Shown here one piece after another: positions 49,188-54,516 of a DNA stretch of 64,000 nt (the stretch's first letter is position 1; each line of letters begins with the position of its first letter). The position numbers and the translations under genes are program-made. The stretch is from Dehalococcoidia bacterium (GTDB lineage: Bacteria > Chloroflexota > Dehalococcoidia > UBA2979). The notes under the pieces were generated by a model. That model was not told the DNA's origin. It worked only from the letters and a program-made list of their open reading frames with translations, and searched no databases. Where the stretch lies: positions 1,152,001-1,216,000 of the forward strand of contig OZ244720.1 in the NCBI GenBank assembly GCA_965219085.1, in the 5' to 3' direction.

Positions 49188-50027
49188 ATGGCCACCGCGA
49201 CGATCAACGGCGTCGAGATCTACTACGAGGAGCACGGCTCGGGCCCGCCGATCCTGTTCCACCACGGCTTCACCGGGTCGCACGACGGCTTCGTGCCGAT
49301 CGCCGAGCGCCTGCAGGATCGCTTCCGCTGCATCCTCATGGACTCTCGCGGCGCCGGCGACAGCGAGCGTCCCGACGGCGGCTACACGATCGAGCAGTAC
49401 TCGCAAGACATCGTCGGTCTGCTCGACCACCTCGGGCTCGACCAGGTCGCGTACGTCGGCCACAGCATGGGCGGCGGCATCGGCTTCCAGCTCGGCCTCG
49501 AGCACGCCGAGCGCTTCACGCACATCATGCTCGTCACGCCCATCTCCGCCGACGGCTACGCGACCGACCCGGTGCAGGCGGCGCGAGGCCGCCAGCTGCG
49601 CATGGACGGGGCGCGCGACGTGCTGATCCGCGAACGCAAGACCGGGATCGCGCGCGAGGAGCTCATCGACGAAGCCGAGATCGCACGGGACGTCGACCGC
49701 TCGCTCTCGGCCTCCGACGGCCACTACGACGACGGCATGGTGGCGATGGCCACCCTGCGCGTCGGTGACCGCCTGGACGAGATGACGACGCCGACGCTGA
49801 TGATCACCTCCGCCGCCGACGCCCTGCTCGCGGCCAACCTCGCCGACTTCCAGCGCCTGCCGAACGCCTCGCTGCACGTCTTCAACCGCGTCGCGCACGG
49901 CGTGCAGGACGAGGTCCCGGACGAGTTCGCCGAGTTGGTCGCGGACTTCGTGACGCACGGCGTGGTTAACGCGCAGACGCTGGCTGACCGCCTCGTCGCC
50001 GTGCAGGCGGAGGCCGCAGCGGTCTAG
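49188..50027 (+). CDS. Alpha/beta hydrolase
   Basis: HHGF oxyanion motif, DSRGAG, GHSMGG; the stop codon lies in the CTAG target duplication of the IS. Confidence 0.92.
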   Translation: MATATINGVEIYYEEHGSGPPILFHHGFTGSHDGFVPIAERLQDRFRCILMDSRGAGDSERPDGGYTIEQYSQDIVGLLDHLGLDQVAYVGHSMGGGIGFQLGLEHAERFTHIMLVTPISADGYATDPVQAARGRQLRMDGARDVLIRERKTGIAREELIDEAEIARDVDRSLSASDGHYDDGMVAMATLRVGDRLDEMTTPTLMITSAADALLAANLADFQRLPNASLHVFNRVAHGVQDEVPDEFAELVADFVTHGVVNAQTLADRLVAVQAEAAAV

Positions 50028-50649
50028 CAGGCTGCTGAAGAAGCGCCCTTCCGGGGTCTCGGAGTGGCGAGAGGCGGCTTCAAGCCGCCTCCGGGTTCGT
50101 GATCGTGGCCTCCTGACCGGCCCCCGGGGGCCTCTGAGGGCTCCCTGGCGGGGCGGAGGGCGCACTGCGCCTACGCCGCGGCGGTCTCGAGCGTGGCCAT
50201 GCGCACGAGGTTGTAGGCGGCGGCGGTGAGCTCCAGCCAACAGCGGTTGCGCTCGCGGCCCACGAAGCGCAGCTTGCGCCCGCCGCCCACGGTCTTCATC
50301 CAGCCGAAGACCTGCTCCACGATCTTGCGCCGCTTCTGACTCTGCCTGTAGCCGCGATGCCGCGTGGTGCGCCCATCCACGGCGCTGCGGCGGCCGCGGT
50401 CGTGCTGCGCCACGTGCGGCGTCACGCCGCGAGCGCGCAGCGCCGCCACGAAGCCGCGCGTGTCGTAGCCGCGGTCGGCGCCCAGCGTCCCGCAGCCGCT
50501 CACGCTGCGCTCCAGCATCGTGACCGCCGCCTCGCGCTCGGCGTACCCGTTCGCCTCGGTCAACTCCACGTCCAGCACCAGACCGTGACGGTTCTCGGTG
50601 AGCAGATGGCCCATGTAGCTGAGCTTCGCCGTCTGCCCCGACCCCTAAT

Positions 50650-50852
50650 GGGGCCCGACCAGCGGCCAGAGGTTCTCTGGCAGACTGGTTCTGGACCCTG
50701 CCAGCCGGTGAGCTCTCAGCTGATCCCTGCGGCTTCTGGACCGCTTCACGAAGACCGAGCCCCTGCTGGTATTCCGGGTTGTTCTGCAGCACTCATGGGG
50801 TGTCGTGCCATCGAGCACTGATCCATTAGGCCGTCGCAGGAACCAACCCGCC
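50650..50852 (+). ncRNA. Predicted bridge RNA (5' stem-loop, target-binding loop, donor-binding loop)
   Basis: Target guides tgatccct (50721-50728) and cacgaag (50747-50753); donor guides ggggtgtc (50797-50804) and ccattag (50823-50829); each pair flanks an internal hairpin inside an outer stem. RNA ends approximate. Confidence 0.82.
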
Positions 50853-50896
50853 GGGTCGCACCGAGCAGCGCGAAGCGGGAGAGGAACTGAAACACG

Positions 50897-52120
50897 ATGG
50901 CCTTGTACCTGGGCGATGACTGGTCCGAAGACCACCACGACGTCCATCTCATGAACGACGCGGGCGAGCGGCTCGCCGCCCGGCGTCTGCCCGAAGGGGT
51001 GGAGGGCATCACTGCCCTGCACGGACTGGTCGCCGGGTACGCCTCAGGGCCGGGTGAGGTGATCGTCGGCATCGAGACGGACCGCGGCCCCTGGGTCGCG
51101 GCACTGCTCGCGGCCGGCTACCACGTCTACGCCATCAACCCGCGCTCGGCGTCGCGTTACCGCGACCGCCACCACGTCGGCGGCGCCAAGTCCGACGCCG
51201 GCGACGCGAAGCTGCTCGCCGACCTCGTCCGCACCGACCGGCACAACCACCGGGAGGTCGCCGGCGACAGCGACGAAGCCGCCGCGGTGCGCATCCTCGC
51301 CCGCGCCCACCAGCAGTTGATCTGGGACCGCGTCCGCCAGACCAACCGGCTGCGCAACGCGCTCAGGGAGTACTTTCCGGGTGCGCTGGAGGCCTTCCCC
51401 GACCTCGCGCACGACGACGCGGTGGGCGTGCTGGCGACAGCGCCTGGCCCGCGCGAGGCGGCGCGGCTGAGCATCACCCAGATCCGCTCCGCGCTGCGCC
51501 GCGGCGGCCGCCGGCGCAACATCGAGCGGCGCGCCGCCGAGGTCCGCGACGCGCTGCGCTCACCGCAGCTCGAGGCTCCGCCCGCGGTGAGCAAGGCATT
51601 CGCCGCGAGCACCAGTGCGGCAATGAGGGTGATCGGCGAGATCAACCGTCAGATCAAGGAGCTCGAGGCCGAGCTCGCGAGCCATTTTGAGCAGCACCCG
51701 GACGCCGGTATCTACCGTTCCCTGCCCGGTCTCGGCGTGGTCCTCGGCGCCCGGGTGCTTGGCGAGTTCGGGGATGACCCCGAACGCTACGAGTCGGCGA
51801 AGTCCCGCAGGAACTACGCCGGCACGTCGCCGCTGACGGTAGCATCCGGCCGCAAGCACACCGTGAAAGCCCGCTTCGTCCGCAACCGGCGCCTCTACGA
51901 CGCAGTCGACCAGTGGGCGCTGTGCTCCCTGCAGGCCAGCCCCGGCTGCCGCGAGTTCTACGATCGGCGGCGCGCCGCGGGCGACCTCCACCACCAGGCG
52001 CTCCGCGCCCTCGGCAACCGTCTCGTCGGCTACCTACATGGCTGCCTGAAGCGCCGCTTGCCCTACGACGAGACGACCGCCTGGGGACACCGTTACACCC
52101 ACGAGGACCTCGCTGCTTGA
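50897..52120 (+). CDS. IS110-family recombinase/transposase
   Basis: DEDD residues in LGDDWSE, GIET, KSDAGDA; SLPGLG; YAGTSPLTVASGR. Confidence 0.95.
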   Translation: MALYLGDDWSEDHHDVHLMNDAGERLAARRLPEGVEGITALHGLVAGYASGPGEVIVGIETDRGPWVAALLAAGYHVYAINPRSASRYRDRHHVGGAKSDAGDAKLLADLVRTDRHNHREVAGDSDEAAAVRILARAHQQLIWDRVRQTNRLRNALREYFPGALEAFPDLAHDDAVGVLATAPGPREAARLSITQIRSALRRGGRRRNIERRAAEVRDALRSPQLEAPPAVSKAFAASTSAAMRVIGEINRQIKELEAELASHFEQHPDAGIYRSLPGLGVVLGARVLGEFGDDPERYESAKSRRNYAGTSPLTVASGRKHTVKARFVRNRRLYDAVDQWALCSLQASPGCREFYDRRRAAGDLHHQALRALGNRLVGYLHGCLKRRLPYDETTAWGHRYTHEDLAA

Positions 52121-52299
52121 CCCCTTAGCGTCCTGGGGGTGTCTTCGTGTACAGCCGCGCCTCCGGGTCCGTGCCGGAACTATGCGTATCGCGGCTGCGC
52201 CGCCGCCCGCGGAAGTCGACATCCGGGTTGCGTCCGCCCAGGGGTGGCTCCTGCTCGTCGCGCGGGCGGTAGCTTCTATGAGGGACGGTCTTTCTGCAA

Positions 52300-52600
52300 G
52301 GCCGACGTGGCGGCCTCCTCCTCGGGGCGTGGCGCTCCTCGACATCGGGGCCGATCCGCTCGTGATGTCCCCTGACGGAGCCTGTGCCGAGCTTCTATCC
52401 GCACTCTTTGATGGGCCACGTATCGGGCCCGGTGCATGAAGGCACATCCTGCTTCCAGGGGGCGCTGCCAACTCTTGAACGTCCTTGTTGGACCGCTACC
52501 GCCTCGCAGTCGCCCGTTGCCCGGCATCACGTGCAGTGGTTGGTTTGCTGGGCCTCCTCCCAGGTCCGTCTCAGTCTCGCTCTCCTGGTCGGTTGCTTCG
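52300..52600 (-). ncRNA. Predicted bridge/seek RNA of the IS1111-group element
   Basis: RNA-sense ggcgguagc (52503-52495) + hairpin gucc-aacaa-ggac + ucaagag (52478-52472) match the two halves of the insertion site; auagaag (52398-52392) is complementary to the donor junction. RNA ends approximate. Confidence 0.8.
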
Positions 52601-52613
52601 GCGCCGCGCCTTG

Positions 52614-53702
52614 CTACGCGGCCTCCTGCGCCGCGGCGTCGCGCAACGGCTCGTAGACCTCGCCGGTCTTCCACAGCGCGAGCAGCAGCACCGCCAGCCG
52701 CCTCGCGACGCCCACGACGGCGCGCTTCTTCGCGTTACCGGCCCCCGTAGCGGTGTAGCGCTCACCCCAGCGGCGCAGGTCGGTGTCGGGCCCGAAGGGG
52801 CCGAGGATGTAGTGCGCGGCCTGCACCAGCAGCCGCCGCAGGTGCGGATCGCCGCTCTTGCCGATGCCGAGTTGCGGCGTGCGCTCGCCCGAGTCGCGCT
52901 GCCTCGGCACGAGCCCGAGGTAGGCGCCGACCTCGCGGTTCTTCGGGAAGCGCCCAGGATCCTCGATCGTCAGCACGAACGTGAGCGCGGTGATCGGCCC
53001 GACGCCCGTGACCTGGCGCAGCGCCGCGGTCTCGGAGTGAGCCTCGCACAACGCCTCGATCTCGCGGCCGGCCGCCGCGATGCGCGCGGTCAGCTCGCCG
53101 ATCGCCTCCACCAGCGGCAGCAGCGCCGGGCGCAGCCCGTCGGGGATGTGGTCCGCCGTCTTGCGGTGGAACGCCTCGGCCGTGCACGACGGCAACGCGG
53201 CTCCGCAGGCCTTGACGGCCCCGCGCACGTGGTTGATGAGCAGCGTCCGCGAGCGCACCAGCGCGTCGCGGGCGCGCACCACGGCGAGGTCGTGCTGGCT
53301 CGCCTCGCTGCGGTGGCGGATCGGGGCGAGCAACTGGGGGTCGAAGCGCCCCAGCCGCGCCAGCCACTCGGCGTCGAGCCGGTCGGTCTTGCGCTGGCTG
53401 CGGGCGATCAGCGCGACCTGGCGCGGGTTGGCGACGACCACCTCGTGGCCGAGGTCCGCCATGAGGCGGCTCAGCCACGGCGAGCGCGGCCCCGCCTCGA
53501 TCACGACCCGCGATGGGGGGAGGCCGGTCAGCACCATGCCCAGCGCTGCCGTCGTGGTGCGGACGCGCCTCTCACGTACCACCTCCCCGCCGGCGCCGAG
53601 GGCGTGGACGTGGGTGTAGCGGTCGCCCACGTCGAGGCCGATGGTGACCCCTGACCCTTCCTTGCCCTCAATGCTCCACGTCGTTGCGGTATCCTGCTGC
53701 AC
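52614..53702 (-). CDS. IS110/IS1111-family recombinase/transposase
   Basis: IGLDVG, VIEAG, VANPRQV, KTDRLDA, GVGPITA, YLGLVPRQRDSG, ARRLAVLL. Confidence 0.95.
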   Translation of the reverse strand: MQQDTATTWSIEGKEGSGVTIGLDVGDRYTHVHALGAGGEVVRERRVRTTTAALGMVLTGLPPSRVVIEAGPRSPWLSRLMADLGHEVVVANPRQVALIARSQRKTDRLDAEWLARLGRFDPQLLAPIRHRSEASQHDLAVVRARDALVRSRTLLINHVRGAVKACGAALPSCTAEAFHRKTADHIPDGLRPALLPLVEAIGELTARIAAAGREIEALCEAHSETAALRQVTGVGPITALTFVLTIEDPGRFPKNREVGAYLGLVPRQRDSGERTPQLGIGKSGDPHLRRLLVQAAHYILGPFGPDTDLRRWGERYTATGAGNAKKRAVVGVARRLAVLLLALWKTGEVYEPLRDAAAQEAA

Positions 53703-54516
53703 GGCCGGTCTCCTACCTCGTCAAAGCTCCGCAAAGAGCCGTTCTGGCCCATCGAGGCCGCTGTTTCGGGGGCGAGTATCCCCCTTGAGGAAGAGACCGG
53801 CCCTCATGCCATCTCTTGAGCGACGCCCACGCCTCGAGCAGCGTCCCGTCCACCGTGAAGTGCTCGGCCGAGAGCAGCCGGCGGCGCTTTGCCTCGGCCA
53901 CCACCTCGGCGAAGAAGGCGCGCGCGACATCGGCTGCGAGCAGGCGCTCGCGGTTCTTGGAGAAGCTCGAGGCGTCGAACGGCGCGTCTGAGATGTTGAG
54001 GTCCAAGAACCACTTGAAGAGCAGGTCGTAGCGCAGCCGCTCGCTGAACTGGCGCTCGCTGCGGATCGAGTAGAGCGCGATCAGCAGGCTCGCCTTGAGC
54101 AGGTGCTCGGGCGGGATCGAGGGCCGCCCGCTCGTTGCGTACATCGTGCCGAAGAGCGGCGAGAGCCGCTGCAGCGCTGCATCGACGATCGGCTTGATGC
54201 GTCGGATCGGGTGGTCGTCCGGGATGAAGGAGTCCGGCGTCACCGCCAGCAACATGTTGGTCTGACGCTCAGCGTCGCCTCGCACGGGGCTGCCTCCCAG
54301 GCTACGCCCCCGCCGCCTTCGCTATCCTGCCAGATGGCCGCGCCTTTTTCAGCACCCTGCTAGGCTCCCCACCTGGGGCCGAACGCAAGAATCGGGGAGC
54401 CGCCGCGGCGGCTCCCCGGCGTCACCTCCGTGGCGCGGCCGAGGGCGATCCGGGTGGCGACGCAGCCCCACCCGAGCGCAAAGACGACTACCAGCCGTAA
54501 TCGGAGAGTGATTCTT

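Follow-up and report, generated by a model that had tools for sequence, protein, structure and literature searches.

The window considered here is a stretch of 64,000 nucleotides from a Dehalococcoidia bacterium (contig OZ244720.1, positions 1,152,001 to 1,216,000). It contains, on the + strand at positions 50647-52144, an element of the IS110 group of 1498 bp (the right-hand copy of the CT core included), hereafter referred to as element A. A single long open reading frame (50897-52120, + strand) encodes a recombinase of 407 aa and is bordered by non-coding ends of very unequal length, i.e., 250 nt on the left (50647-50896) vs 24 nt on the right (52121-52144). Collectively, the data described below make it very probable that this segment is an intact IS110-group insertion sequence, most likely moving by a bridge-RNA mechanism of the IS621 type.

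At the left junction, the target CGACCC (50639-50644) precedes the CT core (50645-50646) and the first letters of the element, AATGG (50647-50651). The right junction reads GGGGTGT (52136-52142), CT (52143-52144) and then TCGTG (52145-52149). Six copies of element A exist in this genome, five of them embedded in copies of another insertion sequence (the host element). The left target with its core (50639-50646, + strand) is the same in all five host-embedded copies, and the right target TCGTG (52145-52149, + strand) is unchanged across all six insertions. The left donor GGGGTGT with its core (52136-52144, + strand) has a run of five G in two copies and of four G in the other four. The boundaries of element A could be fixed to the base by comparison with uninterrupted host copies, since the two flanks abut there with a 2-bp overlap corresponding to the CT core. 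CT is found at both junctions of all six copies and once in empty sites, with no other duplication. The target and circle-junction strings listed in an earlier note, which had been made from the letters of this stretch, were all found where it had placed them upon reading of positions 50400-52400.

The recombinase matches PF01548 (DEDD_Tnp_IS110; 2.7e-37) and PF02371 (Transposase_20; 4.1e-11), and reaches 191.6 bits against NCBIfam NF033542, "IS110 family RNA-guided transposase," for which the cut-off is 140. Among solved structures in the PDB, only the IS621 transposase (8wt6 plus five other entries; E 5.6e-08) matches it. Its predicted layout comprises an N-terminal DEDD RuvC-like domain followed by a C-terminal Tnp domain with the catalytic serine. 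Residues D8, E60, D100, D103, S317, and G318 are invariant in 74/74 intact homologs, five further homologs having broken frames. Based on the alignment with the PDB match and on the motifs, these residues likely correspond to D11, E60, D102, D105, and S241-G242 of IS621, an enzyme for which all five catalytic residues are reported to be required for recombination (PMC11208158).

The left end is predicted to encode a bridge RNA. Its four guide segments lie where the earlier note had located them, and their sense and order are those expected from the IS621-type two-loop architecture with a CT core that it had put forward. The left target guide (LTG), UGAUCCCU at 50721-50728, matches the left target and core at 6/8 positions, both differences being a U where the top strand has a C. 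The first U of this 8-nt segment is probably not a guide position, and it mismatches the second natural target, that of the sixth copy, as well. The remaining guide, GAUCCCU (50722-50728, + strand), has the same sense as the left target and core and would pair with the bottom strand. The right target guide (RTG), CACGAAG (50747-50753), matches at 7/7 positions and is followed by a handshake guide, AC (50754-50755). Taken together (50747-50755, + strand), these two segments are the reverse complement of the right junction 52141-52149 (GT-CT-TCGTG) at 9/9 positions. In the second loop, the left donor guide (LDG), GGGGUGUC (50797-50804, + strand), matches the left donor and the C of the core (52136-52143) at 8/8 positions. 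The right donor guide (RDG), CCAUUAG (50823-50829), is a 7/7 complement of CT+AATGG and is extended by a handshake G at 50830 (50823-50830, + strand), the complement of the target letter that immediately precedes the core. Such handshake nucleotides have been described for IS621, the two nucleotides after the RTG and the two after the RDG being reported to pair with the other DNA following strand exchange (PMC11208158).

As a control for chance, 200,000 left ends were generated with a first-order Markov model preserving the dinucleotide statistics. Exact matches were obtained in 1056 of these random left ends for the LD 8-mer, in 435 for the RD 7-mer and in 4072 for the RT 7-mer, while any two of them co-occurred in 35.

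Relatives of the recombinase were then collected with a scan of one genome per species, which retrieved 254 stretches, the best 80 of which were kept and correspond to 79 loci. All 79 belong to entries named "MAG: Dehalococcoidia bacterium" (MAG, metagenome-assembled genome), and their recombinases share 67-86% amino-acid identity with that of the window. The earlier note was right in surmising a high-GC lineage. With the window and the sixth genomic copy, the set amounts to 81 loci, of which 77 could be parsed using the conserved left end and a structure-anchored pattern; the right end was found in 70/77. Four loci (L043, L057, L083, and L092) were excluded, no left end having been found. In three of them, L043, L057, and L092, the conserved left end is absent upstream of the gene, and L057 has an unrelated sequence in place of the donor-loop region; these three loci may be truncated or rearranged copies.

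Nearly all of the loci parsed share the same element ends, donor guides, and donor hairpin. The target loop, for its part, falls into 16 classes among the 77 loci, and these classes follow the flanks. For instance, LTG GGCTCCCT is found with the target GGCTCC-CT (L026 class) and LTG AACAACCT with AACAAC-CT (L084 class), while the RTG of the L060 class is the exact complement of CT-ACAAC. In the L086 class, LTG CGGTTCCT is accompanied by an RTG complementary to CT-TTCTT. When targets were permuted among classes, the 69/96 matches observed for the LTG (mean 40.6, standard deviation 4.3) and the 65/70 observed for the RTG (mean 35.0, standard deviation 5.8) were reached in 0/20,000 permutations each. 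Keeping one class per distinct RTG gave 39/54 for the LTG (0/20,000) and 31/35 for the RTG (2/20,000). That the targets of homologs track their guides, a check set in advance by the earlier note, is thus borne out by this family.

The contribution of each guide position could also be read from these loci. RTG positions 3 to 7 match in 68, 67, 70, 69, and 58 of 70 loci, respectively. What the earlier note had called 7-nt right guides is composed of 5 nt plus 2 core nt, in agreement with the family data. For the LTG, matches at positions -2 to -4 were obtained in 74, 72, and 71 of 77 loci. Positions -5 to -7 match in 51, 57, and 38 loci, values rising to 69, 71, and 70 if U:G and G:T pairs are included. 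The handshake AC is invariant in 77/77 loci, as is the donor end that it reads. The nucleotide after the RDG forms a Watson-Crick pair with the last pre-core target letter in 74/77 loci, the remaining three being G:T. The 74 Watson-Crick cases include three compensatory handshake pairs (L097-L099, with G in the target and C in the RNA), which belong to one lineage and count as one event.

Some loci depart from this general pattern. In L042, the target loop matches the left target at 1/6 positions and the right target at 5/5, while L026 and L041 match at 5-6/6 on the left and 3/5 on the right. Substrates matching half of the RNA have been reported to recombine in the case of IS621 (10.64898/2026.08.31.748434) and, by analogy, these three loci may be natural examples of half-match insertion. 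In L060 and L061, the LTG fits the target only after a one-base shift (GCCGC then U in the RNA, CT in the DNA), so that either the register of the left arm differs by one base or the alignment is at fault.

The fold of the left end was investigated using an alignment of 20 distinct left ends. RNAalifold predicts a 5' hairpin and then a long stem around an internal loop, with the LTG on its 5' side and the RTG on its 3' side, closed by an inner hairpin of 4 bp. In a hand-drawn two-loop structure, 96.9% of 839 cells are paired, a proportion falling to 30-46% if partners are displaced by 1-3 columns. For covariation, a score of 0.195 was obtained vs 0.144 in shuffled alignments, which reached the observed value in 0/500 cases. 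Six pairs are altered on both sides, including AU/UA in seven sequences (columns 74-121) as well as AU/CG and AU/GC in the inner hairpin. In the window, the 5' stem-loop spans 50657-50690 (+ strand), and its helix 1 (columns 12-17 with 42-47) is paired in 96.7% of cells. The target-binding domain follows (50691-50777, + strand), with stems 50691-50695/50773-50777 and 50700-50715/50757-50770 and the inner hairpin GCGG/CCGC at 50729-50744. Compensatory changes occur in this domain at columns 63-130, 74-121, 90-105, and 92-103. The donor-binding domain (50778-50847, + strand) is delimited by an outer stem, 50778-50787 with 50836-50847, which encloses an internal loop and an inner hairpin (GUGC 50805-50808 with GCAC 50815-50818). 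Its helices 5 and 6 are paired in 92.7% and 100% of cells, respectively. Since the helices of this domain show hardly any variation, and its inner hairpin and guides none at all, covariation speaks neither for nor against them.

A second feature conserved in the family is a predicted split promoter. Its -35 half, TTGACC (52117-52122, + strand), overlaps the stop codon of the recombinase gene, TTGAC being found at this place in 69/69 loci for which both ends were parsed. The other half is the hexamer TCT/AAT, which consists of the last three letters of 52136-52144 and of 50647-50649, and which is created solely by the joining of the right end to the left one. In the integrated element, no sigma-70-like promoter or intrinsic terminator was found in 50500-52300. 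The spacer between TTGAC and TCT/AAT is of 18 nt in 54 loci, 17 nt in 14 loci and 19 nt in a single one, the window. The 19-nt spacing from TTGACC to TCTAAT given in the earlier note is correct for the window and one twin copy (2/6), but the other four genomic copies have one G fewer and a spacing of 18 nt. The length in the window results from the fifth G of the donor run, which is present in 2/6 genomic copies.

Public sequencing data were considered through the assembled contigs of four of 22 listed runs, a type of data which cannot show rare forms. Element A is present in these contigs, along with host copies devoid of it. One DNA contig joins 50644 to 52143, as in an exactly empty site of the occupied subtype; with only 20 letters on its shorter side, it is no more than a hint. 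No joint from 52144 to 50647, as expected for a circle, was found in the contigs of the four runs, which is uninformative either way because contigs miss rare forms. A single study, with two runs, provided contigs from RNA libraries which, at 90-95% likeness, extend over about 50644/50670-50837 and a large portion of the gene. They were not counted as expression of element A, since their target guide is of another class (like that of L101), pointing to a relative as their origin, and they possibly reflect DNA carry-over.

The genomic context of element A provides a record of its insertions. The host, an IS5-family element of 1301 bp, is bounded by terminal inverted repeats of 24 bp and, in an intact copy, encodes a 358-aa transposase. 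In the window, the left part of this host (50024-50646, - strand) carries the C-terminal DDE part of the transposase gene (PF01609, 2.7e-16). Comparison of host copies identified a middle part (52145-52274, - strand) located between element A and a second element, B, and a further part lies at 53815-54363. Element A splits the transposase gene within the codons for ..YTKG(A/S)GQT... Twelve host copies were compared: five are plain, two contain A only (one of them with a further insertion), two contain B only, and three contain both. Around genome position 342000, a 13th, diverged copy is found. At the 13-nt insertion site, host copies devoid of A have CGCTCC-CT-TTGTG, with three differences relative to the occupied CGACCC-CT-TCGTG. 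As judged from these sites, the preferred target of element A in this genome is the transposase gene of one sequence subtype of the 1.3-kb IS5-family element.

The six copies of A are near-identical in this 3.3-Mb genome, and five occupy the same position of the repeated host element. The six differ at three positions in all, namely, an inserted C in one left end, one substitution in the gene and the G run of four or five. The sixth copy is outside any host element, at ..GGATCT-CT / TCGTGG.., where the right target is identical and two of the five core-adjacent letters of the left target differ from the host site, one of them now agreeing with the guide. The host flanks differ by 15-34/390 nt between three host groups, compared with 0-3/1498 nt for A, which indicates that A is much younger than the split of its hosts. 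With three host lineages hit at the same base and the sixth site, at least four independent recent insertions have to be assumed. Element A, which the earlier note had described as possibly active, is therefore probably active, as far as can be judged from six copies differing at no more than three positions. At the sixth copy (L006, C1:166200-167900), an 8-bp inverted repeat, GGCTCGTC ... GACGAGCC, is located 21 nt left and 32 nt right of the insertion site; it may be a hairpin-forming repeat.

By analogy with IS621, the following cycle can be proposed. Element A would leave in circular form, the CT core linking its right and left ends. The circle joint would assemble the promoter, i.e., TTGACC, a spacer of 18-19 nt and TCT/AAT, driving the synthesis of a non-coding RNA of about 195 nt (about 50656-50850) with a 5' hairpin and two stem-enclosed internal loops. 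The first loop would read the target, and the second one the joined ends of the element, GGGGUGUC pairing with the left donor and CCAUUAG with the core and right donor. The 407-aa DEDD/Ser recombinase, sitting on both loops, would exchange strands at the CT core. After top-strand exchange, the handshake AC following the RTG and the G following the RDG would pair with the partner DNA. The product would be an insertion flanked on each side by CT, the only letters duplicated. In this scheme, the circular form, the RNA, its association with the recombinase and the chemistry are modeled on the IS621 literature. The anatomy of the element, its boundaries, the history of its copies, the tracking of targets by guides, the covariation of the stems and the conserved split promoter were observed directly in the sequences compared here.

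Several observations weigh against this interpretation. The LTG is perfect for neither natural target, with 6/7 matches for each, and in the family its letter opposite the core T matches in only 37/77 loci, while in IS621 pairing to both core strands is reported to be strongly preferred (PMC11208160). The donor loop and both element ends are invariant in the family, so the assignment of the donor guides depends on their identity alone. A scan of 50000-54500 with Rfam 15 returned no bridge-RNA family match, the left end being unmatched. Neither the RNA nor the circle was directly seen in the assembled contigs. Regarding the fold, RNAalifold proposes an alternative GCACU/GGUGU pairing which would cover part of the LDG, the single-sequence folding z-score of the whole left end (-0.27) is uninformative, and the structure with the conserved helices has an energy of -41.5 kcal/mol vs -91.9 for the minimum free energy structure. 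In the free RNA, the unpaired probability is 0.92 for the LTG, 0.42 for the RTG, 0.25 for the LDG, and 0.23 for the RDG. The location of the guides in loops rather than stems, as anticipated by the earlier note, hence holds for the target guides in the comparative internal loop, whereas free-RNA thermodynamics pairs the RTG, LDG, and RDG. In the system already characterized, it is the recombinase that holds the loops. The lack of support for open loops at three of four guides and of a directly seen RNA would be in line with coincidental guide matches, the protein alone choosing its target. This explanation is extremely improbable given that 1) at least two of the three exact matches occur in only 35/200,000 random left ends, 2) the guides change with the targets across 16 classes to an extent that 0/20,000 permutations reach, and 3) the stems around the target loop covary.

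Other unfavorable points concern the genome itself. A perfect 12-nt target is absent from it (0 matches), the host-type 12-mer site at +1837023 is unoccupied and so is the site at +2987407, which has the five left letters of the sixth copy, the core and the right target. Furthermore, three of the five host-embedded copies are part of a nested unit of host, A, and B of 4.15-4.34 kb and 99.8-99.9% identity, and these three copies may have been copied as a unit. It could accordingly be argued that the host-embedded copies descend from one ancestral insertion, carried by copying of the host or of the larger nested unit rather than directed by guides. The window copy and the copies at 3278771 and 1803541 indeed share this unit although the sequences around it are not the same, no difference is seen over 390 nt of their host flanks (0/390), and every host copy of the matching subtype bears A, no empty copy of this subtype being present in the genome. 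However, the two other host copies differ by 15-34/390 nt from this group and from each other, while their A copies differ by only 0-2/1498 nt, and this unequal divergence of host and A speaks against carriage as the sole cause. Hosts alone, with A, with B, and with both all exist, and the sixth copy is outside any host element. Carriage instead of guided insertion thus appears improbable as an account of the host-embedded copies.

The window copy also has the least favorable promoter spacer, 19 nt. It is conceivable, although we consider it rather unlikely, that the family is active and that the window copy is weakened, the extra G leading to a 19-nt spacer and to little bridge RNA from its circle. 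This spacer is indeed unique to the window among 69 loci, the others having 17 or 18 nt, and the fifth G is found in only 2/6 genomic copies. Conversely, the twin copy at 3278149 is identical including its 5-G run, meaning that the variant has been duplicated at least once, by transposition or carriage. In addition, the extra G is outside the 8-nt stretch read by the LDG, and the bridge RNA and recombinase of sister copies could act in trans.

Despite these reservations, guided insertion of an IS621-type element remains the reading favored here, and comparison with characterized systems is consistent with it. Like IS621 from E. coli, element A combines a DEDD RuvC-like domain with a Tnp domain containing the catalytic serine, and its predicted left-end RNA is built alike, with a 5' hairpin followed by one loop for the target and one for the donor. 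In both systems, pairing involves the bottom strand for the 5' guide and the top strand for the 3' guide, the CT core being within the pairings. Also common to both are two handshake nucleotides, an A of the target loop opposite donor T7 and a G of the donor loop, as well as a promoter split across the junction of the right and left ends, which is a predicted one in A. The IS110 group is defined, in the published account, by a left end that is much longer than the right one, by a 3'-side top-strand pairing of 4-7 nt and by the presence of the core in all four pairings, and its promoter is described as formed on excision (PMC11208160). At the sequence level, all testable traits of the group were found in element A; the donor guides and the element ends match but, being identical in nearly all loci, show no covariation. 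Excision has been reported to be weaker than insertion while using the same RNA (PMC13626964).

Element A nonetheless differs from IS621 in several respects. Its protein has 407 aa vs 328 residues in the solved IS621 chain (326 by the domain numbering of the paper), with distant similarity, and its right target guide is of 5+2 nt, compared with the RTG-RT pairing of 4 bp reported for wild-type IS621. In the family, 40/77 loci lack a match at the LTG position that faces the T of the core. The host of A belongs to a high-GC Dehalococcoidia lineage, its target is in the coding sequence of another insertion sequence and not in a repetitive extragenic palindromic (REP) element, and A is known here from sequence alone. 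All these differences are of degree. Element A is a canonical bridge-RNA element whose mechanism was already described in 2024, and it is not a new kind of system.

The IS1111 group, as described, has subterminal inverted repeats of 7-17 bp and its RNA in a long right end (PMC11187229). Element A shares with this group the recombinase family, an RNA-selected target and, from what is reported, landing inside other mobile elements. It does not conform to the IS1111 pattern, however, its guides being located in a 250-nt left end, with a right end of 24 nt; the subterminal repeats of A were not systematically searched. In Pseudomonas putida, ISPpu9 and ISPpu10 are likewise IS110-family elements reported in several copies at one repeated sequence (PMC12288879; 10.64898/2026.03.19.712850). 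Unlike A, which has a coding site in an IS5-family transposase gene, they are described in intergenic REP-type repeats. Among the papers listed by a literature search for IS110 or bridge RNA together with Chloroflexota or Dehalococcoidia, there were only general ones on Chloroflexota, which does not establish that the family is undescribed.

While the known mechanism is unchanged by these findings, element A provides a natural bridge-RNA system with complete annotation, in a lineage that is uncultured and of high GC content. Its family represents a natural reprogramming series, with 16 target-loop variants, an invariant donor loop and recombinases 67-86% identical to that of the window. Such a series could help to choose orthologs and to learn which guide positions nature leaves free. 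Element A also illustrates how an insertion sequence can be disabled, with subtype specificity, by RNA-guided ones.

In the same host element, 130 bp from A, a second IS110-family element, B, spans 52275-53814. Its gene (52614-53702, - strand) encodes a protein of 362 aa which matches PF01548 and PF02371 and scores 240 bits against NF033542. Both junctions of B have a CT core, and the element contains subterminal inverted repeats, ATGAGGG/CCCTCAT. Its non-coding regions extend over about 324-339 nt downstream of the gene vs about 110 nt upstream. These repeats and the longer downstream end correspond to the IS1111-group pattern. Based on these sequence features, two different elements, both predicted to be RNA-guided, disable one IS5-family transposase gene.

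A further, speculative extension can be considered, in which targeting in the clade of A is dominated by the right arm and A, with an IS1111-type partner, is a subtype-specific hyperparasite knocking out one allele class of the IS5-family transposase. The near-perfect RTG and handshake (58-70 of 70 loci at RTG positions 3-7), the loose reading of the left arm and one-arm insertions such as L042 suggest this dominance. The looseness of the left arm is apparent at the core-T letter and at positions -5 to -7, which often pair only by U:G. On balance, the extension as a whole is doubtful.

The only significant match obtained with Rfam was Ms_AS-4, an Actinobacteria small RNA, at 51721-51802 on the minus strand (63.9 bits for a gathering score of 50; E 1.3e-08). 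This match is antisense inside the recombinase gene, in a conserved region of the Tnp domain, and is probably due less to an RNA gene than to conservation of the coding sequence with IS110 elements of mycobacteria. Elsewhere in the genome, C1:893433-894622 (L007) contains what is left of an A-like recombinase gene, with 83% identity. In place of its bridge-RNA end lies the end of a B-like element, which is duplicated there, and its right end abuts a copy of the host insertion sequence. Because its left end belongs to another element, L007 was unusable as a covariation partner. Finally, at C1:1803541-1805177 and 3090782-3092146, host copies bearing A contain further insertions of about 1.6 and 1.4 kb, respectively, in the host left part.

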